Assembly (NCBI RefSeq): GCF_049075655.1
Contig: NZ_CP157522.1
Coordinates: 672,001-736,000, forward strand
Direction: 5' to 3'
DNA: 64,000 bases
Origin: Methanothermococcus sp. Ax23
Lineage (GTDB): Archaea; AGJL01; Methanococci; Methanococcales; Methanococcaceae
The notes beneath the pieces were generated by a model. It ran no database searches. It had not been told where the DNA came from and saw only the letters and a list, made by a program, of their open reading frames with translations. The position numbers and the translations under genes were made by a program. This document shows positions 2 to 63,999 of the stretch, in pieces; position 1 is the stretch's first letter; each line of letters opens with the position of its first letter.

Positions 2-385
2 AACTGGGTTTCATCAGTTAGACTGAATTTTCCAAAGATGGAGGTAATCACGGGAACATGGGTTGATAAACTTACAAATATAGGTCCTTTAATAATGAGT
101 GGTTCAAATACCATTACAAAGTTTCCATTATTTAGCATATTTGGAAAGAAAGAGGGAATCACAGTAGAAAATGAAATAAAATCTACTGGAAGGGAACTAC
201 TGGGGACTTTTTCAGATATTGAAGTGTTGGAAGGAAAAAAGAAACTTAAAAATACGCCTTATGTTGATGAAGATATAATAATAAGTGATAAAAACATTGA
301 ACTACTGAGCTCTCTAAAAGATAAAATTGATGATAAAGTAAATAGCTATATTTTGAGAACCTTAAAAAGAGTTAATAATAAATAA
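2..385 (+). CDS. 3' part of a CDS entering from the left edge (unidentified protein)
   Basis: Frame is open from position 2 to TAA at 383-385. There is no SD before the ATG at 38, so this is probably a C-terminal fragment. Confidence 0.6.
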   Translation, partial: NWVSSVRLNFPKMEVITGTWVDKLTNIGPLIMSGSNTITKFPLFSIFGKKEGITVENEIKSTGRELLGTFSDIEVLEGKKKLKNTPYVDEDIIISDKNIELLSSLKDKIDDKVNSYILRTLKRVNNK

Positions 386-430
386 TTGGAAATATGGGCG
401 TAATATAACGAATAATAGAAAGTGATAATT

Positions 431-943
431 ATGAAACATAGACCTTTAAATAGTGAGGAAGTTAAATCAGTTAAAAATATATTAATCAACTACATCGGAA
501 AAAACATAGAAAACTTTAAATTTGAGAACCTATATGTTTTGGAAGATAAAGATGAATATGTGGCAATATATGCAAATAAAGAAGTTCTCGAAACTCTTAA
601 AAACTTTGATAGAAATATCTATGGTGCAGGCATTTCATTTGGAAATTTTGAAATTAAGCGCAGTGGCAGTGAAAATAAAATTAAATTTTCAATATCCTTG
701 GAAGGCATGTCGTTGATTTCAAAAGATATTATAAAAAATTATGTGATTGTAAATAAAAAAGGCGAAACTTTATTTTTATACGGCAGAGATGTATTTAAAT
801 CATCGATTTTGGAGATAAATGGCGGAGGAAAGGTTGCAGTATTTAATAAAAATAAGGAGCTCCTTGGTGTTGGGAACTATGGTGGAGGAGATATAATCAA
901 GAATATCATTGACAAGGGATGGTATTTGAGAAAAGGTGGATAA
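431..943 (+). CDS. NIP7-like / UPF0113 PUA-domain ribosome biogenesis protein
   Basis: Motifs FLYGRDV...VAVFN...LLGVG and C-terminal DKGWYLRKGG. ATG 431 follows AGTGAT; the ORF track gives GTG 422. Confidence 0.8.
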   Translation: MKHRPLNSEEVKSVKNILINYIGKNIENFKFENLYVLEDKDEYVAIYANKEVLETLKNFDRNIYGAGISFGNFEIKRSGSENKIKFSISLEGMSLISKDIIKNYVIVNKKGETLFLYGRDVFKSSILEINGGGKVAVFNKNKELLGVGNYGGGDIIKNIIDKGWYLRKGG

Positions 944-982
944 TTATTATATTAATTTAAAAAAAGAATAGATGTGAAAAAC

Positions 983-1795
983 ATGAATTCAAAAGAATTG
1001 GTTAGTAGAATTTTAAATGATATTTATGAAAATTTAGATGAATATTCAAAAGATTTGATAAGGGCATGCAATTTCGATGTGCAATTTAAGAATTTATATA
1101 TTATAGATGATAAAACAGGAAAGAAGGTAAATATAAAGAATTTAATGGATTGTGAGAACATTGCATCCTTTGAGGCTCAAAATAGGATATATAAATTTAA
1201 AAAAGTCAGTTTAAAAAAGATGATTGATGAGATTATAATAATACACATGTCATCGAGAAAATCAAAAGATGGTTATTCTTTTGAAGTAGATAGTGATTAT
1301 AAGGTGGTTGAACCATCCATAGTTATAAATTATGAACATAAGGAAAGAATATTAATGTGGAATGAGCTCACCGAGGAGGAGCTCGATGAAAAACTTGCAG
1401 ATTTTGACATGAAAATCAATACAATAACTGAGGATGTTTTAAAAAAGATAGGATGTATTGATAATAATAATTTTGTAGTGTATATGGATGTATTTATGGA
1501 TTTAGAGATTATTAAGAACATCACTGAAAAGGAAGGAAATATGGTAATGATTTGGGTGCATCCGTTGTTTATATTTTCAAATGATAATGTGGTAAAGGGA
1601 ATCATAACATATGAGCTCTCAAAATACAATAAAAATATACTCGAAATGTTCTATAAGGATATTATGGAATACTGTAAAGAATATAAAAAGCTCTGCGGTA
1701 AAAATTTAAAGATATTGGAAAAGATAAAGGAAATAGCAATAAAAAGAAATGATGAAAAGGTTATTAAAGCCATTAAAGAGATGGAATTTATTTAA
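983..1795 (+). CDS. hypothetical protein
   Basis: ~271-aa ORF with host-like composition, co-oriented with its neighbours; no family recognised. Confidence 0.7.
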   Translation: MNSKELVSRILNDIYENLDEYSKDLIRACNFDVQFKNLYIIDDKTGKKVNIKNLMDCENIASFEAQNRIYKFKKVSLKKMIDEIIIIHMSSRKSKDGYSFEVDSDYKVVEPSIVINYEHKERILMWNELTEEELDEKLADFDMKINTITEDVLKKIGCIDNNNFVVYMDVFMDLEIIKNITEKEGNMVMIWVHPLFIFSNDNVVKGIITYELSKYNKNILEMFYKDIMEYCKEYKKLCGKNLKILEKIKEIAIKRNDEKVIKAIKEMEFI

Positions 1796-1874
1796 TTTAT
1801 TAAATATTAAATATTATCTTTATTATCTTTATTTTTTACTTTTTTATTGATTATTTTTAAAGATACGTGATATT

Positions 1875-3080
1875 ATGAAACTCAGACAGATTCCAGAGGA
1901 TTTTATTGTTGAGGAGATTTTAGACAATGATATTGATGGTATTAAAAGTAATACTGATAAGGGAAGTTTTAATTTATACATTTTAAAAAAAACAAACATA
2001 GAAAATTTAAAGGCGTTATCCTATGTTTCAAAAGAATTCAATATTCCATTGAAGGACATAGGATACTGCGGTTTAAAGGATAGACACGCTATTACTACGC
2101 AGTATATAACCATTCCATCAAACTACGGGACATTATCAATTGATGAGGAAAATTTAAAATTAAATTATATTAAAACCATAAAAAAGCCACTAAAAATAGG
2201 GGATTTAAAGGGAAACAAATTTAAAATTACAGTTAGGGGCATTGATAAAAACAATTTTTTAAAAATAGGTGAAAATTTAAGAAATCTAAACTTAGGAGCT
2301 CCGAACTATTATGATGACCAAAGGTTTGGAAGTGTATTTCATAATAAATTCATAGCAAAAGAGTATTTGAAAGGAAATTATGAAAATGCACTAAAAATAC
2401 TGCTTATAAATTACAAAAAAAGTGAAAATAAACGAATAAAAGATTTAAAAAGATACATAAAAAGTAATTGGAACGACTGGAAGAAGATTTTAAAATACAT
2501 CAAAAACAACAAAATAAAAAGCAAAATGTTTGTGAATATAATAAAATACCTAAACTATGAGGAAAATCAAATAAATTACAAAGAAGCCCTTAAATATGTT
2601 GATAATCGACTAAAAAAGCTTTTTGTATCTGCATATCAGAGTTATCTTTGGAACGAGTGTGTGAAGGAGCTCCTAAAAAATTACATCCCAAAGGATGAAA
2701 GGATTTATTTAGATTACAGTTGTGGAACATTTTTATTTTATAAAAAAATCGACGATGAACTATTTAATAAATTAAAGGATAAAACATTCCCAACAATTGC
2801 ACCAGATATTGATTATAATGAATTTGATGAAGAATATCAAAACATAATATCAAAAGTTTTGAAAAAGGAAGGAATCAAACTGAATGATTTTAATAAACTA
2901 AATGATTTAGGCAAACTTTCTTATTCTGAAAGATATATTTTGTCCATTCCAAAAAATATCAAATATGAAACCTTTAAAAAAGATGAATTAAATAAAGGGA
3001 AATATAAAATAACTCTTGAATTTGAGTTGAATAAAGGTAGCTATGCTACAATAGTAATAAAAAGAGTATTTAATGCTTAA
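1875..3080 (+). CDS. truD: tRNA pseudouridine(13) synthase TruD
   Basis: PEDFIVEE, GYCGLKDRHAITTQ (catalytic Asp), GNKFKI, NYYDDQRFG, SAYQSYLWN, FELNKGSYAT. Confidence 0.95.
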   Translation: MKLRQIPEDFIVEEILDNDIDGIKSNTDKGSFNLYILKKTNIENLKALSYVSKEFNIPLKDIGYCGLKDRHAITTQYITIPSNYGTLSIDEENLKLNYIKTIKKPLKIGDLKGNKFKITVRGIDKNNFLKIGENLRNLNLGAPNYYDDQRFGSVFHNKFIAKEYLKGNYENALKILLINYKKSENKRIKDLKRYIKSNWNDWKKILKYIKNNKIKSKMFVNIIKYLNYEENQINYKEALKYVDNRLKKLFVSAYQSYLWNECVKELLKNYIPKDERIYLDYSCGTFLFYKKIDDELFNKLKDKTFPTIAPDIDYNEFDEEYQNIISKVLKKEGIKLNDFNKLNDLGKLSYSERYILSIPKNIKYETFKKDELNKGKYKITLEFELNKGSYATIVIKRVFNA

Positions 3081-3754
3081 TTATTTTTTTCCTTATATAA
3101 ATTATAAATGTATTCATTCCATTTTAACCACATTTCAGAAGTATCTTTATTTACTTCGCTAAATCCCATAGTAATATAATAATTTCCTATTTTTCTATAA
3201 TAGCAGTAGCTTATTGGTGTGCTGTTCTCATATTCGGATGAGTAAGTGTATTTATAATAATCCCCATATTTAAAGTGCAATTCAGTTTTTGAAACTTTTA
3301 TATATTCTGGATTGTCTAAATTTGGTTTGTAGTTTCTCACATCAAAATTTATTACATTTCCATTTTTAATGTATGTCTTTATTTTTCCCTTTTTGTATCC
3401 TTCTGATATGTCGAGGACATTTGAATATGGTAAGTCCATAAATAAATCATCCAATGGAACATTTTTTGAATAATCTACATAAATTATATCATCTGAATTG
3501 TTGTTGGTGAATTCATTTTCGTTGGTGGTTATGTTGAGCTCATTATTTTCATTATTATTGTTTGTATGACTTACATTATTATTTATAGAATAATTATTAA
3601 TTGATGTATTTATGTAATTAAAATTATTTAAATTATTATTTCGGTTGTTATCTGCTGTTGTGTGGAATTTGTCGAATACAACATAACCTCCCAACAATAA
3701 GACAGCCAATGAGAGAATTAATATTAATATATCCTTGGACGATGGAAAAGCCAT
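3077..3754 (-). CDS. hypothetical membrane-anchored protein with Asn-rich linker
   Basis: N-terminal hydrophobic helix, Asn-rich low-complexity stretch, then a Tyr-rich globular part. Confidence 0.7.
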   Translation of the reverse strand: MAFPSSKDILILILSLAVLLLGGYVVFDKFHTTADNNRNNNLNNFNYINTSINNYSINNNVSHTNNNNENNELNITTNENEFTNNNSDDIIYVDYSKNVPLDDLFMDLPYSNVLDISEGYKKGKIKTYIKNGNVINFDVRNYKPNLDNPEYIKVSKTELHFKYGDYYKYTYSSEYENSTPISYCYYRKIGNYYITMGFSEVNKDTSEMWLKWNEYIYNLYKEKNN

Positions 3755-3807: not shown

Positions 3808-4287
3808 TTAATTTTTAATATTTTTTAAATCGTTTATAAGTGAATTAAAGGAATAATAAGGTATATTTTTTATTTGGACTTTATCTTTTACTTTATCTTT
3901 AAATATATCTACTAATTCTTCATCATATTTTATAGTGTATTGGGCAATATCGGAGCTCCTAACTCTTATTCCAACGCCCACACGGTGTATGGCACCAGGT
4001 AGTTTTAAATATATTGTAATAAATTTATCGGGATATACTGCAATAAGAGATACTTCGTTCCATTTAAACAGTTTAAGCCGAGTTTTTATGCCCTCATCTG
4101 TGATTATAATTTTTTTACTGCTGAGGCTGTATGTTATTATCAAGAATACTAAAAATACCATTACTGCAATAACAACTGATGCTGTTAAATCCCCCGTAAA
4201 AATATACAGCATAATTGTTGATTGAATAACACATGTTATTATAACATACTTTAAATGTTCCACATAAATGCTTGCTGTTTTATACAT
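3808..4287 (-). CDS. hypothetical 2-TM membrane protein (paralog of 5465-5938)
   Basis: Two TM helices followed by IIITDEGI...FKWNEV. GAGGGG SD precedes ATG 4287; the ORF track start is 4299. Confidence 0.7.
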   Translation of the reverse strand: MYKTASIYVEHLKYVIITCVIQSTIMLYIFTGDLTASVVIAVMVFLVFLIITYSLSSKKIIITDEGIKTRLKLFKWNEVSLIAVYPDKFITIYLKLPGAIHRVGVGIRVRSSDIAQYTIKYDEELVDIFKDKVKDKVQIKNIPYYSFNSLINDLKNIKN

Positions 4288-4348: not shown

Positions 4349-5449
4349 TTATTCCAAAACTAACGCCTTTAACTCTTCGGGTCTGTGGAGCTCACCACCG
4401 ATTTTATCACTAAGCACCACATCGCATTTAGCGTATTTCATTACCTCTCCAACAATCTGACCTAAATTCATTTCAGGAACTATGATTTTTGAAGCCTTTA
4501 AGTTTTTTATGAGCTCATCAGGGAATGGATAAACTGTAATCAATCTAATATATCCTACATCATGCCCTTCTTTTCTCATTTCCTCAACAAGATATTTTAC
4601 AGTTCTTGAAGGTGTTCCATAGCATATAAACATGGTTTCGCTGTCAATATATTTTGCTTCGTATTTTATAATGTCGTCTTTATTGTTTAGTATTTTGTTG
4701 CAAATCCTTTTTACCAGTTTTTCATGGGTTTCAGATGATACATCAGGATATCCTCTTTCATCATGGGTTAAACCTGTAATATGAACATTGTACCCTTCTC
4801 CAAATATTGGCATTTCAGGAACTTCTTTGTCAAATGGGTATGGTTTTTTACATGGTTTTTCTTCTGGAAGAGCTCTGTTTATTATAGGAATATTATCATG
4901 TAAAACTACCTTTTCCCTCATATGCCCTACAATCTCATCAGCCATAATAAAAACTGGAATTCTGTATTTTTCCGCATAGTTAAACGCCATAATCGTATAG
5001 TCATACATCTCCTGAACAGATGATGGTGCCAATGCTATTGGCTCGTAATCACCATGACTTCCCCATCTTATTTGCATCATATCTCCCTGACTTGCATAGG
5101 TTGGCTGACCTGTTGAAGGTCCTCCTCTCTGAATATCCACTATTACGCAGGGAGTTTCGGTCATAAAGGCATATCCTATGTTTTCCATCATTAAGCTTAA
5201 TCCCGGACCTGATGTTGCTGTCATGGATTTTAAGCCGCCCCAACTTGCACCGATAACACATGCTATACTTCCGATTTCATCCTCCATCTGAACATAATTT
5301 CCTCCAAACTTTGGGAGCTCCCTAGCCATACCTTCGGCTATCTCTGTTGATGGTGTAATTGGATAACCTCCAAAAAATTTACAACCTGCTTTGAGAGCTC
5401 CTTTTACACATGCTAAGTTTCCCTGAATAAATTCCACATTATCAGCCAA
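4349..5449 (-). CDS. korA: 2-oxoglutarate:ferredoxin oxidoreductase alpha subunit
   Basis: YPITPSTEI, QMEDEIGS, TATSGPG, QRGGPSTGQPT; TTG start after AGGTGAT. Confidence 0.9.
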   Translation of the reverse strand: MADNVEFIQGNLACVKGALKAGCKFFGGYPITPSTEIAEGMARELPKFGGNYVQMEDEIGSIACVIGASWGGLKSMTATSGPGLSLMMENIGYAFMTETPCVIVDIQRGGPSTGQPTYASQGDMMQIRWGSHGDYEPIALAPSSVQEMYDYTIMAFNYAEKYRIPVFIMADEIVGHMREKVVLHDNIPIINRALPEEKPCKKPYPFDKEVPEMPIFGEGYNVHITGLTHDERGYPDVSSETHEKLVKRICNKILNNKDDIIKYEAKYIDSETMFICYGTPSRTVKYLVEEMRKEGHDVGYIRLITVYPFPDELIKNLKASKIIVPEMNLGQIVGEVMKYAKCDVVLSDKIGGELHRPEELKALVLE

Positions 5450-5464: not shown

Positions 5465-5938
5465 TTATTTTTTTAAACTTTTCATAAATCTATCTAAATC
5501 CTGATAATCCGTATAAGTAATCTTATTTTTGATTTTATCATTAAATAGTTTTATAATATTTTCATCATATTTAATCATATATTCAGCAACATTTGACAAT
5601 TTTGTCTTCACATAGCGATATTTGTAATATTTACCCATTTTCTTAGATACTATAATTTTAATTATTATATATTGATTTGGGCATATTATAACGCATTTTA
5701 CATCTTTCCATTTATATATCTTATTTCTTATTTTAATTCCTTCATCGTTTAGAATTATCGGTTTTTTTGATATAATATATCCTGCGATACCATAAATCAA
5801 TCCCATAATTGACACAAACAGGAATGAGCTCATGTAATCCCCAGTTGTAATATAAAGTCCCGCCCAAAATACAAAAAGTATCCATATAAATAAAAATTCC
5901 CAATTTGGTAGAAGTGTGGTGTATCCTTTATATTCCAT
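5465..5938 (-). CDS. hypothetical 2-TM membrane protein (paralog of 3808-4287)
   Basis: Two TM helices followed by IILNDEGI...YKWKDV; GGAGGGG SD. Confidence 0.7.
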   Translation of the reverse strand: MEYKGYTTLLPNWEFLFIWILFVFWAGLYITTGDYMSSFLFVSIMGLIYGIAGYIISKKPIILNDEGIKIRNKIYKWKDVKCVIICPNQYIIIKIIVSKKMGKYYKYRYVKTKLSNVAEYMIKYDENIIKLFNDKIKNKITYTDYQDLDRFMKSLKK

Positions 5939-5956: not shown

Positions 5957-6877
5957 TTATTTACCTACAACATACTTATATACGACATCTAACTTCTCCT
6001 TTATTCCGTATTTTTTGAAATATCTTAAAATATTTTCCAAATCCCTCTTTAAATAATATTCAGTATTTACTTTAAATTCTCCCGGTAGTTTATCCAATTT
6101 TAATTTTATATCATTTTCATCTTTTATTTTTATCGCCTGCGGGAAGTCAATTATTAGGAAATTTCCATCTTCATCAATTAATATGTTAAATTCGCTTAAA
6201 TCTCCGTGAATATATCCGAGCTCATACATTTTCTTTACTTCGTCTATTATATCCCAAAACAATTTGTTAATATCTATGTCCAATTGGTTTAAATCCACTC
6301 TTTTTAATTCATCCCCTTCCATTTTTCCAATAATTAATGCATGTCTATTTTGCTCAATTGGTTCTGGGACTTTTACAATTGGGAACAAATCACTTAATAC
6401 TTCAAATTCCTTTTCCGCCGTTAATCTTGAAGCATATAACCAACTGATATGTCGTTTATCTGCCAAATAGCTCCTGTATCTCTTTCCCCTTGTGAAGCAT
6501 GTTCTCCCTAAATTATGGAATTTTAAAACTGCTTCCCTGTTGTTGCTTAATAGGACATTATAAACATCCCCTTCTTTTCCAACGCCTAATTTTCCGCCTA
6601 TTGCAGTAATGATTCCTTTTTTAATAAATGCATTTAATGCCAATGCATCATATCCTTTATGGGAGAGTCTATAACCATAGCTACTTCTATTTATGAGTTT
6701 GAACTTATCCAGTATTTTTAACCTGTATAATACCTCTTTTTTATCGAGCTTTGTTTTCTTAATTATTTCAGGCAATGGAACCCATTCATAATACCTCATT
6801 GATACTTCAATGATTTTTAAAACTCTCCAATCATCTTCTTTCATTTCCTGCAATGTGTTGATTAATTTTTCTATGAT
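5957..6877 (-). CDS. rio2: RIO2-family Ser/Thr kinase
   Basis: N-terminal wHTH with GYDALAL, GVGKEGDVY, HGDLSEFNI, IIDFPQ. Start uncertain: TTG 6853 in the track, or SD-supported ATC at 6877. Confidence 0.9.
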   Translation of the reverse strand: MIEKLINTLQEMKEDDWRVLKIIEVSMRYYEWVPLPEIIKKTKLDKKEVLYRLKILDKFKLINRSSYGYRLSHKGYDALALNAFIKKGIITAIGGKLGVGKEGDVYNVLLSNNREAVLKFHNLGRTCFTRGKRYRSYLADKRHISWLYASRLTAEKEFEVLSDLFPIVKVPEPIEQNRHALIIGKMEGDELKRVDLNQLDIDINKLFWDIIDEVKKMYELGYIHGDLSEFNILIDEDGNFLIIDFPQAIKIKDENDIKLKLDKLPGEFKVNTEYYLKRDLENILRYFKKYGIKEKLDVVYKYVVGK

Positions 6878-7728: not shown

Positions 7729-8814
7729 ATGAAATTTGGATGGATATTGGCAAACAATGAAGATTGGGAAGAAAGAAAAGAAACTGTGAAAGATGCTCTT
7801 GAAAGCTCAATTCCTGCGGTCATGGTTCCAAAGAATGACATTGAAAAAGTAAGGGAGCTCGGAAATATAAAAATTATTTCAAATGATTTAGATGCAGATA
7901 TTGTAGTAATAAATAAAGATGAAGATTTGGATATACTTTTCAACGCAAAAAAGCTTGGAAAAGAAACTGGCGTTTATGTATCCATAGAAAGCAAGGATGA
8001 TGAAGAATACGCTTCAGAAGTAAGTAGATACGATTATGTTGATTACATAATTTTGGAAGGAAAGGACTGGACAATTATTCCATTGGAAAATCTTATAGCA
8101 GATTTATTCAATGAAAATATAAAAATCGTATCTGTGGCAAACAATATTGAAGATGCAAAAACAGCTTATGAAATACTTGAAAAAGGTGTAGATGGAGTTC
8201 TTTTAGCTCCAAAGGATACCAACGATGTTAAGGACTTTTCAAGGTTAATAGAGAAAATGAATTCCGAAAAACTAAAATTGGAATACGCAGTTATAAAAAA
8301 GGTTGAGCCTGTTGGTAGTGGCGATAGGGTATGTATTGACACATGCTCAATGATGGAGCTCGGAGAAGGTATGTTGATAGGTTCCTATTCAAGAGGCTTG
8401 TTTTTAGTGCATTCAGAAACAGTGGAAAACCCTTATGTTGCTACAAGACCATTTAGAGTAAATGCAGGACCTGTTCATGCATATATATTATGTCCGGGAA
8501 ACAGAACAAGATATTTAAGTGAGTTGAAGGCAGGAGATAGCATATTGATAGTTGATAAGGATGGAATGACAAGAGAAGGTATCGTTGGCAGAGTAAAAAT
8601 AGAGAAAAGACCTTTAATGCTCATAGAGGCAGAATATAGTGGGGATATAATAAGAACAATATTGCAGAATGCCGAAACCATTAGGCTTGTTGGAGAAGAT
8701 GGGAAACCAATCTCAGTGGTTGATTTAAAAGAAGGGGATAAAGTTTTAATAAAAGCAGATGAAAATGCGAGACACTTTGGAATGGCGATAAAAGAAACAA
8801 TCATTGAGAAATGA
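7729..8814 (+). CDS. aroB': 3-dehydroquinate synthase II (archaeal AroB')
   Basis: DWTIIPLENLIA, GDRVCIDTCS, RPFRVNAGPVHAY, ARHFG. Confidence 0.95.
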   Translation: MKFGWILANNEDWEERKETVKDALESSIPAVMVPKNDIEKVRELGNIKIISNDLDADIVVINKDEDLDILFNAKKLGKETGVYVSIESKDDEEYASEVSRYDYVDYIILEGKDWTIIPLENLIADLFNENIKIVSVANNIEDAKTAYEILEKGVDGVLLAPKDTNDVKDFSRLIEKMNSEKLKLEYAVIKKVEPVGSGDRVCIDTCSMMELGEGMLIGSYSRGLFLVHSETVENPYVATRPFRVNAGPVHAYILCPGNRTRYLSELKAGDSILIVDKDGMTREGIVGRVKIEKRPLMLIEAEYSGDIIRTILQNAETIRLVGEDGKPISVVDLKEGDKVLIKADENARHFGMAIKETIIEK

Positions 8815-8898: not shown

Positions 8899-9657
8899 AT
8901 GGTGTTTATTGGAGATGTTGAAAAAAGATTGAATAAAATCCTGGAAGAAGAAGGAGCTCTATATTTTATACTAATAGACCCTGATGAAAAAAATTGTATT
9001 GATATAGCAAAAAAGGTAAAAGATTACGCTGATGCCATAATAATGGGAGGTAGCATAGGTATTACTAATTTAAATGAAATTACAAAAGAAATTAAAGAAA
9101 TAGTTGGGGATATTCCTATTATTTTGTTCCCTGGCAATGTGGATGGTTTGACGCCCCATGCAGACGCTGTTTTTTTCATGTCTTTAATGAATTCAAATAA
9201 CACCTACTGGACAACTATGGCACCTACATTGGGGGCAATTACTGTTAAAAAATACAATTTGGAAGCAATACCTATGGCATATTTGGGAATCGAACCTATT
9301 AAAAGAACCGCCGTTGGTTTTGTAGGTGAAGTGAATGAGATACCGCAGAGAAAGCCAGAAATAGCAGGAATGTATTGTCTATCTGCTAAATACTTTGGTA
9401 TGAGGTGGGCATATTTAGAGGCAGGAAGTGGTGCTGAGTTCCCTGTAAGCAATGAAATGATAGCAATATCAAAAAAATTAAGTGGAATAAATATCATTGT
9501 GGGTGGAGGTATAAGGACGCCAGAAGTAGCATATCAAAAGGTTTTAAGCGGTGCCGATGCTATAGTTACGGGAACTCTCATTGAAGATAATCCCGATGCA
9601 GTAAAAGAGATGAGAGATGCCATAAAAAAGGCAGGAATGGAGAAATTAAAAAAATAA
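8899..9657 (+). CDS. geranylgeranylglyceryl phosphate synthase
   Basis: LIDPD, GGSIG, ILFPG, YLEAGSGA, VGGGIR, IVTGT. Confidence 0.92.
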   Translation: MVFIGDVEKRLNKILEEEGALYFILIDPDEKNCIDIAKKVKDYADAIIMGGSIGITNLNEITKEIKEIVGDIPIILFPGNVDGLTPHADAVFFMSLMNSNNTYWTTMAPTLGAITVKKYNLEAIPMAYLGIEPIKRTAVGFVGEVNEIPQRKPEIAGMYCLSAKYFGMRWAYLEAGSGAEFPVSNEMIAISKKLSGINIIVGGGIRTPEVAYQKVLSGADAIVTGTLIEDNPDAVKEMRDAIKKAGMEKLKK

Positions 9658-48234: not shown

Positions 48235-48243
48235 GGTGATTTC

Positions 48244-55430: not shown

Positions 55431-56759
55431 TTGGAGGAATTTCTTCATAAAATAAGGCCTATACTCGAATACATTCCAGAAGTAAAGCGACCTGAACGGG
55501 ACATACCATTTAAAGAAAAGTTAAAATGGACAGGAATCGTTCTTGCATTGTATTTTATCATGGGGACAATTGATGTATATACTGGGGGAGCTCAGATTCC
55601 ACCAATGTTTGAATTCTGGCAAACTGTGACTGCATCTAAAATGGGGTCATTAATTACATTGGGTATTGGACCTATTGTTACAGCGGGAATTATCATGCAG
55701 CTTTTAGTTGGGGCTGAAATTATAAAACTGGACTTATCCAATCCAAACAACAGGGCAATGTTCCAGGGACTTCAAAAACTATTTGCAATATTCATGTGTT
55801 TCTTGGAAGGTATAATGTTTGTTGGTGCAGGTGCTTTTGGTCCATTATCTCCGATTTTAATGCTGATATTGGTTCTCCAATTGGCAATTGGTGCTATACT
55901 ATTGATTTACCTTGATGAGATAGTTTCAAGGTATGGTATCGGTTCAGGTATTGGTCTTTTCATTGCCGCAGGTGTTTCCCAGACAATATTTGTGGGAGCT
56001 CTGGGTCCAGAAGGGTACTTGTGGAAATTCTTCAACGCTATGATACAGGGAGCATTGGGAACTGCACTGGAATTTATATTACCAATACTGGGAACAATTC
56101 TTGTGTTTTTCATAGTAGTATATGCTGAGAGTATGAGGGTGGAGATTCCACTGGCACATGGAAGAGTTAGGGGTGCAGTGGGTAAATACCCTATAAAATT
56201 CATATATGTGTCAAACCTTCCAGTTATACTTGCTGCTGCATTATTTGCAAATATCCAATTGTGGGGTATGTTCCTTGAAAAGATGGGATTCCCAATTTTG
56301 GGGCATTATGTAAATGGTAGGGCAGTAGATGGTTTGGCCTATTACTTCTCTACACCATACGGATTAACAAGTGTAATATCTGACCCACTACATGCCATAT
56401 TCTACACAATAATGATGATGATATTCTGTGTGATTTTTGGTATATTCTGGGTTGAAACATCAGGTCTTGATGCAAAATCCATGGCAAGAAGGCTTGGAAG
56501 TCTTGACATGGCAATTAAAGGATTTAGAAAGAGCACAAAGTCCATAGAGCAGAGGTTAAAAAGATATATAAAACCTATTACTGTGATGAGCTCAGCATTT
56601 GTTGGACTACTTGCAGCAGGTGCTGATTTCACAGGAGCTCTCGGTGGAGGAACCGGAGTTTTGCTTACAGTTTCCATAGTTTATAGAATGTATGAGCAGC
56701 TTGTTCAAGAGCAAATTTCAGAGTTGCACCCAGCACTTGCAAAGTTAATTAAAAAATAA
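55431..56759 (+). CDS. secY: preprotein translocase subunit SecY
   Basis: LGIGPIVTAGII.QLL, GIGSGIGLFI, YPIKFIY.SN.P, GGGTGVLLTV; TTG start after GGTGAT. Confidence 0.98.
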   Translation: MEEFLHKIRPILEYIPEVKRPERDIPFKEKLKWTGIVLALYFIMGTIDVYTGGAQIPPMFEFWQTVTASKMGSLITLGIGPIVTAGIIMQLLVGAEIIKLDLSNPNNRAMFQGLQKLFAIFMCFLEGIMFVGAGAFGPLSPILMLILVLQLAIGAILLIYLDEIVSRYGIGSGIGLFIAAGVSQTIFVGALGPEGYLWKFFNAMIQGALGTALEFILPILGTILVFFIVVYAESMRVEIPLAHGRVRGAVGKYPIKFIYVSNLPVILAAALFANIQLWGMFLEKMGFPILGHYVNGRAVDGLAYYFSTPYGLTSVISDPLHAIFYTIMMMIFCVIFGIFWVETSGLDAKSMARRLGSLDMAIKGFRKSTKSIEQRLKRYIKPITVMSSAFVGLLAAGADFTGALGGGTGVLLTVSIVYRMYEQLVQEQISELHPALAKLIKK

Positions 56760-57890: not shown

Positions 57891-60497
57891 ATGGGGAATA
57901 TATTAAATAAAATATCTGAGTTCTTTAATAAACATGAATATATAAAATTATTCTTAATAGTTTTGATAATAGGACTCATAAGCTTTCAGCTAAGAGCTCA
58001 GCCAGCAGATATGGGATTCACAAATAATCCCCAATTGAAGAGCATGTTTGCAGATGAGAATGGAAGGATGTATTTAGTGGCATTAGACCCTTATTACTAC
58101 CTAAGAATGACAGAAGATTATTATTATAATGGACATCTTGGGGAGACACTAAAAGAAGTTAATGGAAAATTGGTGCCTTATGATACCTGCCAGTATGCAC
58201 CACCAGGACATCCAATAACGAGCTCAGTTCCAGTAATATCATTAACTACAATTGCGATATATAATATATGGCATTCGTTTGATTCAACTGTAACGCTGAT
58301 GAATGCGGCTTATTGGGTTCCTGCTGTAATGGGTATGTTGTTGGGAATCCCAGTGTTCTTTATAGTGAGGAGAACCACATTAAGTAATATTGGAGGAATT
58401 GTGGGGGCATTGGCAATCGTATCAAGTCCGGCTCTATTGTATAAAACTTCAGCAGGTTTTGCAGATACTCCAATATTTGAGGTTTTGCCAATACTGTTCA
58501 TAGTATGGTTTATTATGGAGGCAATACATCATCAGGAAAATCTAAAAAAATCCGTAATATTTGCTACATTGGCAACACTGGTAATGGCAATGGCTCCAAG
58601 AATGTGGGCAGGTTGGTGGTATGGATACGATATTGTGAGCGGATTTTTAGTGTTGTATTTGATATATAGCTATATCATCAAGAATAACTATAAAAAATCT
58701 GTTGTAGAAGTTGGAAACATAAAAAACATACTTTCGATTATGGGGATATTTACCCTGGGCGGAGCTCTATTGATATCTGCCATTTATGGGATAAACAGCT
58801 TTATAAACGGAGCTCTTGCACCTATTGGATTCACAACAATAAAGGCAGTTTCACATGCATCAGGATGGCCGAATGTATATACAACAGTATCGGAGCTCGC
58901 TACTCCATCCATACATGATATTATAAATAACTCATTAGGTAGCACATATCTCTTTGCATTAGGTATAGTTGGGGTAATATTGTCATTTATTTCAATGAGA
59001 TACAAGGAAATGAAGGTTAAATTTGATGCAAAATATGCTATATTATTGACACTTTGGTTATTTGCAACATTCTATGCATCTACAAAGGGTGTTAGATTTA
59101 TAGGATTGATGGTTCCACCATTATCCATAGGAGTAGGTATATTTGCTGGACAGATAATAAATATAATAAAAAGAAGGAGTGATGATTTAACAAAATGGAC
59201 ATTGTATCCTATAATTGGTATTTCATTTTTGATGGCACTTAAAGTTGCAGCACCTAAATTATTGGAGATATTGGTTCCTACAACCTATGTTCCTATTGCA
59301 GCCTATGGTATGTTGCTCACACTTGCAATACTTGTAGTATATAAAATAGTTGATATAATTTCATCAAATAATAAGGAAATACAGGCAAAAAAGATTGTTA
59401 GCATATTATTGGCAGTAACTTTGGTTCTTCCACCATTGGCAAATGCTGTTCCATTGAACACAGCACCAACATTAAATAACGGATGGCTGGATAGTTTAAA
59501 TTGGATAAAAACAGAAACTCCAAATAACTCAGTAATTACCTGCTGGTGGGACAATGGACACATATATACCTGGGCTACAAGAAAAATGGTAACATTTGAT
59601 GGAGGTAGCCAAAACTCACCAAGGGCTTACTGGGTAGGAAGAGCATTTTCCACATCAAATGAAAATCTTTCCATTGGAATACTTAGAATGCTTGCCACAA
59701 GTGGAGATAAGGCATTTGAAAGAGATGGAATTTTAATGAACAAAACAAACCACAGCGTAGCGGAAACTGTAAAAATATTAAATGAAATACTACCTTTGGA
59801 TAGGACTAATGCATATAATATATTAACGAATAAGTATGGCTTAACCAGTAAGGAAGCAAATGAAGTATTAAATGCAACCCATCCAGAAAATCCAAATCCT
59901 GATTACTTAATTACCTACAACAGAATGACGGATATTGCTCCGGTTTGGAGTATGTTTGGTATGTGGGATTTCAATCTTTCACCAAATACTCCAGATAGTC
60001 AAAGAGAAAAAGGATATTATCAAAAATTAACCGGAGAAGGGTTTTTAAATAATGAGTCACTTATTGTGAGAGTTCCATTGCAGAAAACAAATGACTATAT
60101 GGTTATGAATCTCATTGTAATAAAAAATGCAACCATGGTAAGTTATGATATTACCTATAACTTAAAAACAAAAACTTTAATGAGTGAAAAAATCACAGGA
60201 TTCCACAAAATAATTGTTAAAGATGGAGATAATATATATGAAAATACATTCAATGAAAATGGAACTATGAGTGAAATTGTTAGATTAAAACCAGCAGGTA
60301 ATGGTCAGTATTATGCCTATGTTTGGATTTCATCAAGAAATCTCGAAGATAGTGTATATACAAAGCTTCATTTCCTTGATGGAGCAGGTTTAAAACACAT
60401 TAAACTTGTTAAGGAATCCACAGACCCTACAAACTATGGAATTCAGCCAGGATTTAAGGTTTATAAAGTGGATTATGGAAATGAATATTTAAATTAA
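57891..60497 (+). CDS. aglB: oligosaccharyltransferase AglB (STT3)
   Basis: DPYY, TVSE, WWDNG motif, multiple TM helices. Confidence 0.96.
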   Translation: MGNILNKISEFFNKHEYIKLFLIVLIIGLISFQLRAQPADMGFTNNPQLKSMFADENGRMYLVALDPYYYLRMTEDYYYNGHLGETLKEVNGKLVPYDTCQYAPPGHPITSSVPVISLTTIAIYNIWHSFDSTVTLMNAAYWVPAVMGMLLGIPVFFIVRRTTLSNIGGIVGALAIVSSPALLYKTSAGFADTPIFEVLPILFIVWFIMEAIHHQENLKKSVIFATLATLVMAMAPRMWAGWWYGYDIVSGFLVLYLIYSYIIKNNYKKSVVEVGNIKNILSIMGIFTLGGALLISAIYGINSFINGALAPIGFTTIKAVSHASGWPNVYTTVSELATPSIHDIINNSLGSTYLFALGIVGVILSFISMRYKEMKVKFDAKYAILLTLWLFATFYASTKGVRFIGLMVPPLSIGVGIFAGQIINIIKRRSDDLTKWTLYPIIGISFLMALKVAAPKLLEILVPTTYVPIAAYGMLLTLAILVVYKIVDIISSNNKEIQAKKIVSILLAVTLVLPPLANAVPLNTAPTLNNGWLDSLNWIKTETPNNSVITCWWDNGHIYTWATRKMVTFDGGSQNSPRAYWVGRAFSTSNENLSIGILRMLATSGDKAFERDGILMNKTNHSVAETVKILNEILPLDRTNAYNILTNKYGLTSKEANEVLNATHPENPNPDYLITYNRMTDIAPVWSMFGMWDFNLSPNTPDSQREKGYYQKLTGEGFLNNESLIVRVPLQKTNDYMVMNLIVIKNATMVSYDITYNLKTKTLMSEKITGFHKIIVKDGDNIYENTFNENGTMSEIVRLKPAGNGQYYAYVWISSRNLEDSVYTKLHFLDGAGLKHIKLVKESTDPTNYGIQPGFKVYKVDYGNEYLN

Positions 60498-61110: not shown

Positions 61111-61316
61111 TTTACTTTATATCATCTCATGTTATTGCGTATTTTGATGGAATAACATTTTAAGGAGCTCTAACATTACACCTAATAATCAAACAAACAA
61201 CTTAACTAAAAAACTAAACAACTACTTATAATCTTACTATTATCATAAAATTCATAAAATCCCCAACTGGGTTTTAAATGCCAAAGGAAGATTATTTAAT
61301 TAATTATGGTGAAATA

Positions 61317-61931
61317 ATGATATTAAGTGATAAAGATATTTTTGAATACGTGGAATCCAATAAACTATTGATTGAACCCTTTAATAGGGATTTTGTTGGA
61401 CCATGTTCTTATGATGTTACACTTGGAGACGAGTTTATAGTGTATAATGATGAAGTTTATGATTTAAAGGAAAAACTTAAACACGAAAAATTTAAAATAG
61501 AAAACTCAATAATGGTATGCCCATTATATCATAAATTAGATGATGATACAATAAAATATTATAAGAAAAAATACAAAGTAGATGCTGTGATTAGTGGAGG
61601 ATTACTTGGAACTACAAACGAGTATGTAAAACTCCCGAATGATATATGTGCTCAGTATCAAGGTAGGAGCTCCTTTGGGAGAGTGTTCTTACAATCTCAT
61701 CAAACAGCAGGATGGATTGATGCAGGATTTATGGGAAAAATTACATTGGAGATAGTGGCTTATGATAAACCTGTAATACTTTATAAAAATCAAAGGATTG
61801 GACAGTTAATATTCTCTAAAACAAACACTCCTGCAAGTGTTGGTTATTGCGATAGAAGGAGCTCCAAGTATGGAGGTCAGGATTCTGTAATGCCTTCATT
61901 AATATGTAAGGAGTTAAATAGTTTAAAATAA
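61317..61931 (+). CDS. dcd: dCTP deaminase (probably bifunctional dCTP deaminase/dUTPase type)
   Basis: ILSDKDI, GRSS.GR....HQTAGWIDAGF.GKITLE, QRIGQL.F. Confidence 0.93.
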   Translation: MILSDKDIFEYVESNKLLIEPFNRDFVGPCSYDVTLGDEFIVYNDEVYDLKEKLKHEKFKIENSIMVCPLYHKLDDDTIKYYKKKYKVDAVISGGLLGTTNEYVKLPNDICAQYQGRSSFGRVFLQSHQTAGWIDAGFMGKITLEIVAYDKPVILYKNQRIGQLIFSKTNTPASVGYCDRRSSKYGGQDSVMPSLICKELNSLK

Positions 61932-62011
61932 TAAAAATAATAAAAAAGGATAAAATAAATTAAAAATAAAATAAAAAATAAGAAATAAAAGCTACGAAAA
62001 AGGATGATATT

Positions 62012-63388
62012 ATGTATGTTCCAGAAGAAATTATAGAAACAATTAGAATGATAGAGCATGAAAATTTAGATATTAGAGCAACTACAATGGGTATAAACTT
62101 AAAGGATTGTGCCTGTGAAGATATAGATACTCTAAAAGAAAATATATACAATAAAATAGTTTCAAATGCAGAAAATCTCGTGGAAACTGCTGAAAGAGTA
62201 TCTAAAAAATATGGAATCCCAATAGTTACAAAGAGGGTTTCAGTTACTCCAATAGGTTCCATTATTGGAAGTGCCATAAAAAATATGGACAGAGATGAGG
62301 CAATTAAAGCATGTGTGGAAGTGGGAAAAACACTTGACAAGGCTGCAAAGGATATAAATATAGATTTTATTGGCGGTTATTCAGCACTTGTTCAAAAGGG
62401 CATTACAAGAAGCGAGGCTATGTTAATCGACTCCATACCATATATGATGAAAGAAACTAATACAGTATGTTCATCAGTAAATGTGGCAACAACAAAAGCT
62501 GGAATAAACATGGATGCAGTTAAGAGAATGGGGGAAGTAATAAAGGAAACATCTGAGATGACAGAAGATGCGTTGGGATGTGCAAAACTTGTGGTATTTG
62601 CAAATGCTCCTGAGGATAATCCATTTATGGCAGGGGCATTCCACGGAGTTGGAGAGGGTGATGCAGTAATAAATGTTGGGGTTTCAGGACCCGGCGTTGT
62701 AAGGGCAACTGTTGAAAAACTCAAAGGTGCGGACATAGGGACAGTATGTAACGAGATTAAAAAAACCGCATTTAAAATCACAAGAGTTGGTGAGCTCATA
62801 GGAAGAGAGGTATCAAAAGAATTAAATGTTCCATTTGGAATTGTGGATTTATCCCTTGCACCAACTCCTGCGGTAGGGGACAGTATAGCAAACATTTTGG
62901 AGGCAATTGGTCTTGAAAGATGCGGAACGCACGGAACAACTGCGGCACTTGCTTTATTAAACGATGCAGTTAAAAAAGGAGGGGCAATGGCGGCAAGTTA
63001 TGTTGGAGGATTGAGTGGTTCATTTATTCCAGTAAGCGAAGATGCTGGAATGATAAGAGCAGTTGAAGATGGTGCATTGAAATTGGATAAGCTTGAAGCT
63101 ATGACCTGTGTATGTTCAGTGGGTCTTGATATGATAGCAATACCTGGAAAAACACCAGCTTCAACAATATCTGCAATAATAGCCGACGAAATGGCAATAG
63201 GAGTAATTAACAAAAAAACCACAGCAGTTAGAATAATACCTGTTCCAAACAAGGATGTTGGGGACTATGTGGAATACGGTGGATTGTTAGGAAAAGCCCC
63301 AATAATGCCCGTAAATGAATATTCATCAGAGGAGTTTATAAACAGAGGTGGAAGAATACCATCACCACTTCAATCTATGTTGAATTAA
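62012..63388 (+). CDS. UPF0210 / DUF711 (PFL-like) protein
   Basis: [48 protein letters not shown]. Confidence 0.9.
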
Positions 63389-63493
63389 AAAATAAAATTA
63401 AAAAATTAAAAAATTAAAAGTAGATAGAAGTTATTTATATATCAAAAAATATATTATAAAGATAAAATAAAAGATATATATCAATGTGATATT

Positions 63494-63658
63494 ATGGCTA
63501 GAAAAAATGAAGATGCTGGACTTAGCACAAGTGCGGGGCTAGTTAGATATATGGATGAGGATATATCTAAAATTAAAATATCCCCTGAAAAAGTTCTGGG
63601 CATTACCATTACAATAATGGTTTTGGAAGCTATTTTGAATTATGGTATATTTATCTAA
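63494..63658 (+). CDS. secG: preprotein translocase subunit Sec61beta, absent from the ORF track
   Basis: Hand translation MARKNEDAGLSTSAGLVRYMDEDISKIKISPEKVLGITITIMVLEAILNYGIFI. Confidence 0.9.
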   Translation: MARKNEDAGLSTSAGLVRYMDEDISKIKISPEKVLGITITIMVLEAILNYGIFI

Positions 63659-63702
63659 TTATTACTAATTTTATTTTTATTTAGCAGAAAAATTATATAA
63701 AA

Positions 63703-63999
63703 CTAATTTATAGATTTTCGATATATTGTTAATATGTCTTCATCATATTCGGATTCTAATTTATAGTTATCAATATATGGATAATCAACATATTTTTTCA
63801 GTTCTTTTCCAAGAGCTCCTGCAAGTATAAATTTAATATTTTTGGATTTATATTTCTCAATAACATTTAGTAATTTTTTTACATCTATTTCTTCACAGGT
63901 GCATCCGAAGTCTCCACCAACTATAACAATTCCACTATCAAAAACATCTGCAAAGTCATTAATGGCATAATCAATAGATTTAACATCAAGACCGGGATT
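63703..63999 (-). CDS. 3' end of a Mur-ligase-like protein, probably coenzyme F430 synthetase CfbE (partial, runs off the window)
   Basis: Hand translation NPGLDVKSIDYAI...IVGGDFGCTCEEID...LAGALG...IYRKSIN*; family call rests on recalled motifs only. Confidence 0.6.
   Translation of the reverse strand, partial: NPGLDVKSIDYAINDFADVFDSGIVIVGGDFGCTCEEIDVKKLLNVIEKYKSKNIKFILAGALGKELKKYVDYPYIDNYKLESEYDEDILTIYRKSIN

Follow-up and report, generated by a model that had tools for sequence, protein, structure and literature searches.

Why is the palindrome GAGCTC so common in the DNA of Methanothermococcus sp. Ax23? The question is raised by one stretch of its genome (the window, 64,000 nucleotides, G000:C1:672001-736000; G000 is the whole genome, 1,670,680 bases in two contigs, the large one of which is 31.9% G+C). 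A preliminary description had put the number of GAGCTC copies there at about 85, against about 4-6 predicted, and had noticed no copy of CTCGAG, a word of the same composition. The exact count is 85 and every coordinate listed is correct; 100 dinucleotide-preserving shuffles of the window give a mean of 4.62 copies (standard deviation 2.33, maximum 12, with 0/100 reaching 85), and CTCGAG occurs 0 times versus 2.39 expected. G000 as a whole has 2,089 sites, at a density of about one in 0.8 kb, and the second contig (7.7 kb) has 4 copies. GAGCTC is a lineage-specific hyper-abundant palindrome, with 1,300-2,100 copies per genome in G000 and three relatives (G003, G012 and G010), and it is kept by a force acting at the level of DNA, which raises the odds of the word about 30-fold wherever it can be written: in each reading frame and in noncoding DNA, and likewise in accessory genes and on the small contig.

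The ratio of observed to expected GAGCTC in G000 is 16.7 under base composition, 19.7 under a first-order Markov model, 4.9 under a third-order model and 1.6 under the maximal-order model, which already includes the pentamers GAGCT and AGCTC; the last ratio is this low because those two pentamers consist almost wholly of GAGCTC copies. No hexamer of G000 is more over-represented, the next-ranked hexamers overlap GAGCTC, and the next palindrome is ATATAT at 1.8. All 18 one-letter variants of the word are at or below expectation (0.04-1.22). The tetramer AGCT has a ratio of 1.17 overall and 0.68 outside GAGCTC, close enough to expectation that the excess of GAGCTC is not an AGCT effect, and in NAGCTC, counted on both strands, the first base is G 4,178 times, A 324, C 281 and T 355, so that 81% of AGCTC follows G.

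Open reading frames (ORFs) were called with a simple caller that gives a rough annotation (1,608 ORFs of at least 80 codons, 86% of G000). The preliminary description reported the word in all three frames and in intergenic DNA, and it is indeed abundant in each: the coding sites number 1,102 in frame GAG-CTC, 630 in xGA-GCT-Cxx and 225 in xxG-AGC-TCx, versus 84, 84 and 24 in 30 synonymous-codon shuffles inside each gene, which keep the protein and its codon usage, including the codons that come from the word itself. The shuffled total has a mean of 191 and a maximum of 224, and the 1,957 sites observed are 10 times as many. Glu-Leu pairs alone are spelled GAG-CTC in 1,102 of 3,979 cases, versus 67 expected. 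A second expectation, from codon usage measured outside the word, and a first-order model of noncoding DNA only give the following values.

Glu-Leu pairs: 3,957 opportunities, 1,101 with the word (27.8%), 37.5 expected, odds ratio 40
Gly/Arg-Ala-(C-initial codon) triplets: 872 opportunities, 630 with the word (72.2%), 62.8 expected, odds ratio 34
x-Ser-Ser contexts: 1,165 opportunities, 223 with the word, 20.4 expected, odds ratio 13
Noncoding DNA: 224 kb, 130 sites, 4.4 expected, about 30-fold

As natural logarithms these advantages are 3.70 for Glu-Leu pairs, 3.51 for the Gly/Arg-Ala triplets, 2.59 for the Ser-Ser contexts and 3.39 for noncoding DNA. The excess thus survives both the Markov and the amino-acid-preserving nulls, and neither of the two outcomes that had been named in advance as counting against an active process, a ratio near 1 after such controls or enrichment in one frame only, was found. 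The force also reaches genes that are not shared: among genes with no match in any relative sequence compared, 176 of 824 Glu-Leu pairs carry the word, versus 821 of 2,777 in genes matching G010, and seven restriction-modification genes of G000, one of them a 1,081-aa gene without counterpart elsewhere in the genus, hold 15 copies in 13.4 kb altogether.

The flanks of the word are only weakly constrained. Flank information is at most 0.3 bits at position -1 and about zero beyond -5, and likewise in G000. An extension to GGAGCTC/GAGCTCC, first noticed in the window, recurs genome-wide as a preference for G at -1 in 38% of half-sites versus 16% background (38% of coding and 35% of noncoding half-sites), accompanied by C at -2 (27-28%), G at -3 (25-27%) and T at -5 (45-47%), with nothing farther out; these preferences are symmetric, weak and alike in coding and noncoding sites. 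Because there is no flank information past about 5 bp, the word is not part of a longer repeat, and a dispersed element (of the repetitive extragenic palindromic type, REP, or like a miniature inverted-repeat transposable element, MITE) was rejected, the copies having no common sequence beyond the core. We give practically no credence to the view that the excess is an artefact of composition, of codon or dicodon usage, of an AGCT excess or of dispersed-repeat copies: the low maximal-order Markov ratio is what one would expect of it, and against it stand the codon shuffles, the enrichment in every frame, the ratios of AGCT overall and outside the word, the dependence of AGCTC on a preceding G, the uninformative flanks, and relatives of similar composition that carry 4-115 copies (below).

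The 85 copies of GAGCTC in the window, and two word-poor regions, are listed here in window coordinates; the copies are given without strand, the strand in brackets is that of the ORF, and the frame is that of the ORF caller.

307..312, ORF ending 385 (+), xxG-AGC-TCx
857..862, full GGAGCTCC, ORF 422-943 (+), Glu-Leu frame
1364..1369, ORF 974-1795 (+), Glu-Leu frame
1379..1384, ORF 974-1795 (+), Glu-Leu frame
1613..1618, ORF 974-1795 (+), Glu-Leu frame
2296..2301, full GGAGCTCC, ORF 1875-3080 (+), xGA-GCT-Cxx
2667..2672, full GGAGCTCC, ORF 1875-3080 (+), Glu-Leu frame
3536..3541, ORF 3077-3754 (-), Glu-Leu frame
3953..3958, full GGAGCTCC, ORF 3808-4299 (-), xxG-AGC-TCx
4388..4393, ORF 4349-5449 (-), Glu-Leu frame
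4511..4516, ORF 4349-5449 (-), Glu-Leu frame
4870..4875, ORF 4349-5449 (-), xGA-GCT-Cxx
5315..5320, full GGAGCTCC, ORF 4349-5449 (-), Glu-Leu frame
5395..5400, ORF 4349-5449 (-), xGA-GCT-Cxx
5826..5831, ORF 5465-5938 (-), xxG-AGC-TCx
6218..6223, ORF 5957-6853 (-), Glu-Leu frame
7855..7860, ORF 7729-8814 (+), Glu-Leu frame
8356..8361, ORF 7729-8814 (+), Glu-Leu frame
8954..8959, ORF 8884-9657 (+), xGA-GCT-Cxx
10216..10221, ORF 9805-11103 (+), Glu-Leu frame
11459..11464, full GGAGCTCC, ORF 11159-12967 (-), Glu-Leu frame
12198..12203, ORF 11159-12967 (-), xxG-AGC-TCx
12921..12926, ORF 11159-12967 (-), xxG-AGC-TCx
13643..13648, ORF 13019-14179 (-), Glu-Leu frame
13694..13699, ORF 13019-14179 (-), Glu-Leu frame
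14508..14513, ORF 14223-15689 (+), Glu-Leu frame
15345..15350, ORF 14223-15689 (+), Glu-Leu frame
15489..15494, ORF 14223-15689 (+), Glu-Leu frame
16554..16559, full GGAGCTCC, ORF 15712-16773 (-), xGA-GCT-Cxx
16630..16635, ORF 15712-16773 (-), Glu-Leu frame
17259..17264, noncoding, just upstream of the small-subunit (SSU) rRNA gene
20718..20723, in the large-subunit (LSU) rRNA gene, sole copy within the rRNA genes
22186..22191, full GGAGCTCC, noncoding, just downstream of the LSU rRNA gene
23319..23324, ORF 22386-23801 (-), Glu-Leu frame
23631..23636, ORF 22386-23801 (-), Glu-Leu frame
23935..23940, noncoding
24905..24910, ORF 24015-26276 (-), xGA-GCT-Cxx
25483..25488, ORF 24015-26276 (-), xxG-AGC-TCx
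25682..25687, ORF 24015-26276 (-), xGA-GCT-Cxx
25970..25975, full GGAGCTCC, ORF 24015-26276 (-), xGA-GCT-Cxx
26070..26075, ORF 24015-26276 (-), Glu-Leu frame
26468..26473, noncoding
28263..28268, full GGAGCTCC, ORF 27433-29757 (-), xGA-GCT-Cxx
28548..28553, ORF 27433-29757 (-), xGA-GCT-Cxx
30276..30281, ORF 30191-31183 (+), xGA-GCT-Cxx
30800..30805, ORF 30191-31183 (+), Glu-Leu frame
31083..31088, ORF 30191-31183 (+), xGA-GCT-Cxx
31479..31484, ORF 31274-32104 (+), xGA-GCT-Cxx
32144..32149, noncoding
32493..32498, ORF 32150-33658 (+), xGA-GCT-Cxx
33086..33091, full GGAGCTCC, ORF 32150-33658 (+), Glu-Leu frame
33503..33508, ORF 32150-33658 (+), Glu-Leu frame
33542..33547, ORF 32150-33658 (+), Glu-Leu frame
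34472..34477, ORF 34396-35088 (+), xGA-GCT-Cxx
35322..35327, ORF 35099-35896 (+), xGA-GCT-Cxx
35489..35494, ORF 35099-35896 (+), Glu-Leu frame
36305..36310, ORF 35942-36817 (-), Glu-Leu frame
36716..36721, ORF 35942-36817 (-), Glu-Leu frame
39454..39459, ORF 38537-39601 (+), xxG-AGC-TCx
40091..40096, ORF 39767-41113 (+), Glu-Leu frame
40908..40913, ORF 39767-41113 (+), xGA-GCT-Cxx
42572..42577, ORF 42237-42755 (-), xGA-GCT-Cxx
43960..43965, full GGAGCTCC, ORF 43745-44437 (+), xxG-AGC-TCx
44123..44128, ORF 43745-44437 (+), Glu-Leu frame
47255..47260, noncoding, within the ribosomal-protein cluster
48272..48277, ORF 48244-48642 (+), ribosomal protein L14, xGA-GCT-Cxx
51947..51952, ORF 51766-52200 (+), xGA-GCT-Cxx
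52553..52558, ORF 52222-52779 (-), xxG-AGC-TCx, frame uncertain
52966..52971, ORF 52771-53355 (+), Glu-Leu frame
53227..53232, ORF 52771-53355 (+), Glu-Leu frame
54537..54542, ORF 54128-54592 (+), xGA-GCT-Cxx
55588..55593, ORF 55431-56759 (+), xGA-GCT-Cxx
55996..56001, ORF 55431-56759 (+), xGA-GCT-Cxx
56588..56593, ORF 55431-56759 (+), xxG-AGC-TCx
56635..56640, ORF 55431-56759 (+), xGA-GCT-Cxx
57994..57999, ORF 57891-60497 (+), xGA-GCT-Cxx
58220..58225, ORF 57891-60497 (+), xxG-AGC-TCx
58762..58767, ORF 57891-60497 (+), xGA-GCT-Cxx
58810..58815, ORF 57891-60497 (+), xGA-GCT-Cxx
58893..58898, ORF 57891-60497 (+), Glu-Leu frame
61165..61170, noncoding
61667..61672, full GGAGCTCC, ORF 61278-61931 (+), xxG-AGC-TCx
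61859..61864, full GGAGCTCC, ORF 61278-61931 (+), xxG-AGC-TCx
62792..62797, ORF 62012-63388 (+), Glu-Leu frame
63813..63818, ORF from 63703 (-), continuing past the window end, xGA-GCT-Cxx
17374..22038, plus strand, SSU rRNA, tRNA and LSU rRNA genes, word-poor (1 copy in 4.7 kb)
45359..51756, plus strand, ribosomal-protein cluster L22 to L6 (Pfam names), word-poor (2 copies in 6.4 kb)

The seven intergenic examples cited in the preliminary description are noncoding by these ORF calls, and the scarcity that it noted in the rRNA genes (one copy, at 20718) and in rpl22-rpl6 (two, at 47255 and 48272) is borne out. The minus-strand ORF 52222-52779 was called inside the plus-strand ribosomal-protein cluster, where it overlaps ORF 52771-53355 (+), and is probably spurious; the frame of the site at 52553 is therefore uncertain.

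The distribution of the word among relatives was determined in 13 genomes of the genus and 8 of a second family. Four genomes of the genus are rich in GAGCTC (G000, 2,089; G012, 2,070; G010, 1,645; G003, 1,321 in 1.4 Mb), the remaining nine carry 4-115 copies, and the eight of the second family carry 49-229. In a maximum likelihood tree of five window proteins from the 13 genomes (with under half of the columns filled for G001, G006 and G007) the four word-rich genomes lie on one side of a branch that has 100% support in the Shimodaira-Hasegawa-like approximate likelihood ratio test (SH-aLRT), which shows that the word excess arose once, in one branch of the genus; with the midpoint root, chosen for drawing only, the sister group of the four is G002, G007 and G008.

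Longer sequences were compared from G010 (1.2 of 1.57 Mb), G005 (0.4 of 1.50 Mb), G008 (0.32 of about 1.7 Mb) and G012 (0.4 of 1.66 Mb). The 400 kb of G012 resemble G000, with a 23.6-fold excess of GAGCTC. The 1.2 Mb of G010 have a strict octamer, GGAGCTCC, in place of the hexamer, at about 298 times the first-order expectation: 752 of the 1,034 coding GAGCTC and 192 of the 208 noncoding ones are complete octamers, and the base at -1 is G in 82% of half-sites in coding and 94% in noncoding DNA. The G003 loci (52 kb, 59 sites) are of the hexamer type, with 46% G at -1, so that in G000, G003 and G012 alike the word is a hexamer, weakly preferring G on its left and C on its right. Hexamer and octamer are dialects of one word, present in coding and noncoding DNA alike. 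No comparable word was found in G008 (323 kb) or G005 (400 kb), where the top hexamers are at most 6-fold enriched. There AGCT is avoided (observed/expected 0.07 in G008 and 0.11 in G005), as under an AluI-type restriction system, and this avoidance accounts for the near-absence of GAGCTC from them. AAGCTT, counted as a proxy for AGCT avoidance, occurs 12-33 times in G001, G002, G005, G007 and G008, 73-151 times in G004, G006, G009 and G011, and 253-325 times in the four word-rich genomes; in the second family it occurs 723-1,222 times in six of eight genomes, and 148 and 374 times in G015 and G019. The rich branch thus accumulates a word whose AGCT core two sampled relatives purge, and GAGCTC separates DNA of the branch from that of its near relatives G008 and G005 more than 100-fold.

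The same data bear on a function in RNA, in which GAGCUC, present in the transcript from either strand, would be recognised by a factor that binds or modifies RNA. A palindrome voids the usual strand argument against such a function, and word occupancy of Glu-Leu pairs is 0.18 in the top decile of codon bias versus 0.24-0.32 in the other nine; the enrichment is nevertheless the same in noncoding DNA, the density of GAGCTC in G010 is 1.10 per kb in noncoding and 1.02 per kb in coding DNA, and the rRNA genes are poor in the word, all of which make a role in RNA very improbable.

Protein-guided codon alignments of G000 genes with those of relatives show that the sites are conserved between genomes above control words of the same composition. 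With G012 (351 orthologues, 85.8% nucleotide identity) 327 sites are common, 113 are peculiar to G000 and 99 to G012. The Jaccard index of the sites is 0.61, that of hexamers of the same composition 0.24 and that of one-letter variants 0.23; the variants themselves show no extra conservation over the controls (0.226 vs 0.239). Where the amino acid is the same, GAG is retained between these two genomes in 191 of 229 cases (0.83) in the word versus 711 of 1,436 (0.50) outside it, CTC in 193 of 239 (0.81) versus 114 of 307 (0.37), GCT in 0.96 versus 0.68 and AGC in 0.90 versus 0.50. With G010 (950 orthologues, 75.9% identity) 327 sites are common, 927 are G000-only and 559 G010-only, a Jaccard index of 0.17-0.18 versus 0.11 for control words, and at conserved Glu-Leu pairs the frequency of the word in G010 is 32% if G000 has it and 8% if G000 has none. 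Noncoding sites of G000 are kept at 9 of 13 positions in G012 (control 0.50) and 2 of 22 in G010 (control 0.39), both small samples. In G000 the share of half-sites with G at -1 is 55-64% for the older sites, those common with G010, and 33-36% for younger ones; the latter share is still about twice background, so the flank preference is weak but live in G000.

Where one rich genome only has a site, its partner mostly has the A+T-rich synonymous GAATTA or GAATTG, and G008 and G005 mostly show GAACTT at G000 sites. Amino-acid identity at site codons equals background (0.727 vs 0.749 against G008; 0.706 vs 0.714 against G005), and the sites have therefore mostly been written into conserved peptides by synonymous change. 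The force nevertheless leaves a small imprint on proteins: G000 has 6-29% more of the peptides in which the word can be written than the aligned positions of G008 and G005 do, versus ratios of 0.93-1.12 for control peptides and 0.91-1.00 among the rich genomes. Polarising with three genomes gives 39-40 lineage-only sites versus 8-10 clear losses, counts in which gains and losses are not cleanly separable because G010 keeps just 51 of the 193 sites common to G000 and G012.

The spacing of sites in G000 is nearly exponential (mean 797 bp, coefficient of variation 1.09), with too few gaps under 20 bp and a mild surplus at 20-50 bp, and it is also exponential in G010 (coefficient of variation 0.99-1.04). 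Counts in 20-kb windows of G000 are near Poisson (standard deviation 5.9 vs 5.0), and no periodicity was found there, the top periodogram peaks reaching 0.51-0.75 of the 95th percentile of permutation maxima. By all three measures the sites appear to be favoured one by one and not placed, and they do not interfere with each other. The longest GAGCTC-free stretch is G000:C1:113847-124945 (11.1 kb); other gaps of 5-7 kb in G000 include 1342926-1355392, 809167-816162 and 746954-753181.

Conservation of this kind could mean that the copies are binding sites of an abundant dimeric chromosome-organising protein, each kept by selection on nucleoid structure or segregation. Selection by a chromosome protein is the explanation that Xu, Lawrence and Durand propose for the highly iterated palindrome HIP1 of cyanobacteria, and their reasoning, as far as the available sections of the paper set it out, applies here in the same form (PMC5861425). 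A palindrome whose symmetric flank preferences reach about 3-5 bp in coding and noncoding DNA, the higher retention of sites and of in-word codons between G000 and G012, and the dependence of a site in G010 on a site in G000 all agree with it. It fits less well with the lack of periodicity or even spacing, since HIP1 is reported to be periodic, with equal odds in all contexts and near-normal density in strain-specific genes and on the small contig, with one-letter variants that, unlike those of HIP1, are not conserved above background, and with noncoding sites that in their small samples are not clearly conserved; no candidate protein was identified. We regard such a protein as a rather doubtful explanation. 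A Sac10b/Alba homologue of Methanococcus maripaludis is said to bind specific DNA sites, a report that we do not use as support.

The preliminary description proposed that an active process creates or retains GAGCTC, and suggested first methylation-directed biased repair around an AGCT/GAGCTC methyltransferase, and then a chromatin-binding site or a DNA-uptake bias. An active process stands, given an excess beyond Markov and codon nulls, similar odds everywhere and conservation above controls; the repair is not supported. Profile searches of G000 gave no match to the C5-methylase family PF00145 or to Vsr (PF03852), the two kinds of gene to be looked for on that proposal, and the E. coli controls matched. 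G000, G012 and G010 share no methylase of PF00145, PF01555, PF02086, PF02384 or PF07669, in searches that for PF00145, PF02086 and PF02384 covered G000 only and that unusual methylases escape; with no shared methylase among word-rich genomes, methylation-directed repair is not supported. What G000 does carry is strain-specific. A 300-amino-acid (aa) beta-class methylase with an SPPY motif (G000:C1:1437541-1439159) adjoins a convergent 245-aa ORF, likely a type II restriction-modification pair, and of the other 12 genomes G003 alone has the two, interrupted there by stop codons. The 580-aa and 1,081-aa gamma-class methylase genes are found in DNA of G000 (and G003) only; the latter, a type IIG-like methylase-endonuclease (G000:C1:70272-73508) whose DNA is unmatched in the other 12 genomes of the genus, itself contains 4 GAGCTC copies in 3.2 kb. 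There are further type I, type IIG and type III genes, and a marginal PF02086 match (E = 1.6e-4). Judged by eye, the 348-aa protein of that match looks like a tRNA methylase, and small matches of 210, 263, 382 and 391 aa look like RNA or protein methylases. In G012, which has 2,070 sites, the sole PF01555 match is weak and has counterparts across the genus; G010 has no PF07669 match above the cut-off (best E = 0.007), and its PF01555 matches are one 453-aa gene and two weak ones. The restriction enzyme profile RE_SacI (PF09566) matched in 0 of 13 genus genomes, and the control likewise in 0 of 14 genomes. The 453-aa frame (G010:C1:207529-208785; 441 aa in G003, G003:C76:877-2124) joins the N6_N4 methylase and SNase families, an unusual fusion present in two of the four rich genomes.

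Biased repair or gene conversion in a wider sense, by which an unrecognised site-specific nuclease, glycosylase or methylase-plus-repair pair resolves heteroduplexes or mismatches at near-sites towards the word, would account for a context-blind force and for independently distributed sites. The synonymous Glu-Leu neighbours one transition away from the word are depleted as if draining into it (GAA-CTC 59 vs about 93 expected, about 0.63; GAG-CTT 54 vs about 117, about 0.46; expectations computed by hand from codon usage outside the word). Methanococci have high ploidy and gene conversion, and many chromosome copies could help such a process. AGCT methylases are common in archaea, to judge from the accessible text of one study (PMC11033074), and a methylase can evade standard annotation, as M.MaeIII did in the part of another that was available (PMC10113651). 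Yet every recognisable part of such a system is missing, from C5-methylase and Vsr in G000 to the methylases just described, confined to G000 and G003 or weak, genus-wide or below cut-off in G012 and G010. Of all one-letter variants the product of C-to-T change at the centre, GAGTTC/GAACTC, is depleted least (1.22), the opposite of what T:G repair towards the word predicts. Nor is any repair system known to us that corrects mismatches of every kind in favour of a palindrome of 6-8 bp. The single-molecule real-time (SMRT) methylome of Methanococcus aeolicus PL15/Hp, a strain whose word content is not established, lists CTAG, GTNAC, GCACY and CGAG as modified and ACGT as inferred, and GAGCTC is not among the motifs in the available portion of the report (PMC10113651). 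Taken together these points make biased repair unlikely.

The explanation that we tentatively put forward, as possible and short of probable, is a drive like that of uptake sequences, acting during DNA exchange. Cells of the branch would favour word-carrying DNA at uptake and recombination, and alleles with the word would replace alleles without it, a molecular drive such as has been proposed for the uptake sequences of bacteria; the word would then not be made by methylation-directed short-patch repair. The uniform log odds, the exponential spacing and the copies in accessory genes are taken as signs of a context-blind force acting per site, and the dialects, the more than 100-fold distinction of the branch and the imprint on the proteome speak for drive. 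We infer that the word is read by a protein of the branch with two-fold symmetry (a dimer), whose specificity has drifted between hexamer and octamer. GAGCTC/GGAGCTCC could perhaps be the first archaeal uptake or self-recognition sequence, a palindromic tag that the pilus-dependent machinery for transformation in this one branch would recognise and that drive would have spread through the genome; its dialects would separate sub-branches, and it would have originated in a lineage whose relatives purge the AGCT core.

Several points weigh against this explanation. All the sequence features that support it are equally expected from a biased-repair system, and site conservation above control words was evidence for selection, not drive, in the HIP1 work of Xu et al. 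The known bacterial uptake sequences are asymmetric 9-12-mers, not 6-8-bp palindromes; a hexamer holds little information; and we know of no uptake bias or receptor in archaea. The competence-linked SNase family PF00565 is present in 11 of 13 genus genomes and so does not track the word excess; this thermonuclease family was dropped as a trait-tracking gene, being not discriminating. No gene that tracks the trait was found in a gene-content comparison that was partial, covering the fetched stretches of G005, G008, G010 and G012. Competence of the G000 organism is presumed by analogy with M. maripaludis, from literature on the genus only. Natural transformation by way of type IV-like pili is established in that species, as described in the available part of the study concerned, where no uptake specificity is reported, the term 'uptake sequence' is absent, and plasmids grown in E. 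coli transform it (PMC10133366).

Among known systems the closest in form is HIP1 (GCGATCGC), and the comparison with it made in the preliminary description is apt, reinforced by the 8-bp GGAGCTCC of G010. Methyltransferase(s) for the HIP1 word or its core are, reportedly after Elhai, present wherever HIP1 is abundant, and a ratchet idea for HIP1, of the biased-repair kind, is attributed to the same author. According to the accessible sections of Xu et al. (2018), HIP1 is likewise a short G+C-rich palindrome found about once per kb in all frames and in noncoding DNA, with sites conserved above control words and variant words in different lineages (PMC5861425). The threshold for words of the HIP1 type is an excess of at least about 15-fold, to be compared with 16.7-19.7-fold for GAGCTC in G000 and about 298-fold for GGAGCTCC in G010. 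The differences are an archaeal host (the rRNA genes in the window are archaeal), a core of AGCT in place of GATC, a hexamer in three of the genomes, one-letter variants that are not conserved, no cognate methylase found in five Pfam families, and no periodicity, in contrast to the 10-90 kb periodicity of HIP1 given in the same sections (PMC5861425).

The DNA uptake sequences (DUS) of Neisseriaceae and uptake signal sequences (USS) of Pasteurellaceae resemble GAGCTC in density (about one per kb; mean spacing here 797 bp), in indifference to frame, in dialects and in a small protein imprint, bacterial uptake sequences in general occurring about once per kb with clade dialects and effects on the proteome; GAGCTC differs from them in being palindromic, 6-8 bp long and informative in its flanks to about 5 bp only. 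In statistics and conservation it thus behaves as HIP1 does, in methylase, periodicity and archaeal host it does not, and it is not an asymmetric 9-12-mer, so it is a member of neither family. The RAATTY word of Campylobacter jejuni, methylated by CtsM, is a short, common, palindrome-like word that marks the cell's own DNA for uptake; it works through methylation, unlike GAGCTC, for which no shared methylase was found. Very-short-patch repair tied to Dcm and Vsr in E. coli, the model for the repair suggested in the preliminary description, can raise the frequency of a methylated palindrome (CCWGG-type words), an effect that is small there; G000, unlike that system, has no C5-methylase or Vsr match and its T-variant is not drained. 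Restriction avoidance, seen in G008 and G005 for AGCT and in G000 for other palindromes, has the opposite sign.

We found no published description of an excess of GAGCTC or GGAGCTCC in methanococci in searches of one open-access collection, supplements excluded, in agreement with the preliminary description, whose author knew of no such motif there; a prior mention elsewhere is possible. So far it is in cyanobacteria that palindromes of extreme abundance have posed a puzzle, methylation being the clue most favoured, and a pattern of that kind is now seen in a branch of the archaea. The branch includes laboratory organisms that are genetically tractable and naturally transformable, and offers a datable single origin, a wordless sister group and two dialects, and with no canonical methylase found the cause of such words becomes directly testable. 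If the word affects uptake or recombination, adding GAGCTC to vectors could raise transformation efficiency, and if it is an uptake sequence a G010-type strain would prefer GGAGCTCC, not AGAGCTCT. GAGCTC is in any case a strong marker of branch DNA in metagenomes, and the word-rich genomes have about 20 times the expected number of SacI-type sites.

Other short words of these genomes also depart from expectation. Palindromes of the form GTNNAC are strongly avoided in G000 (GTGCAC 7 copies, GTTAAC 22, GTATAC 23, GTCGAC 4), as are those of the form CTNNAG (CTGCAG 18, CTTAAG 20, CTATAG 29, CTCGAG 8) and hexamers with GATC, CTAG, ACGT or GTAC, which suggests several active or past restriction systems. 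CTGCAG, so rare in G000, is 4-5-fold over-represented in G005 and G008. The 10-mers CAGTGCTTAG, repeated 30 times in the 323 kb of G008, and TTCCCATCAA, repeated 69 times in the 400 kb of G005, may belong to repeat arrays.

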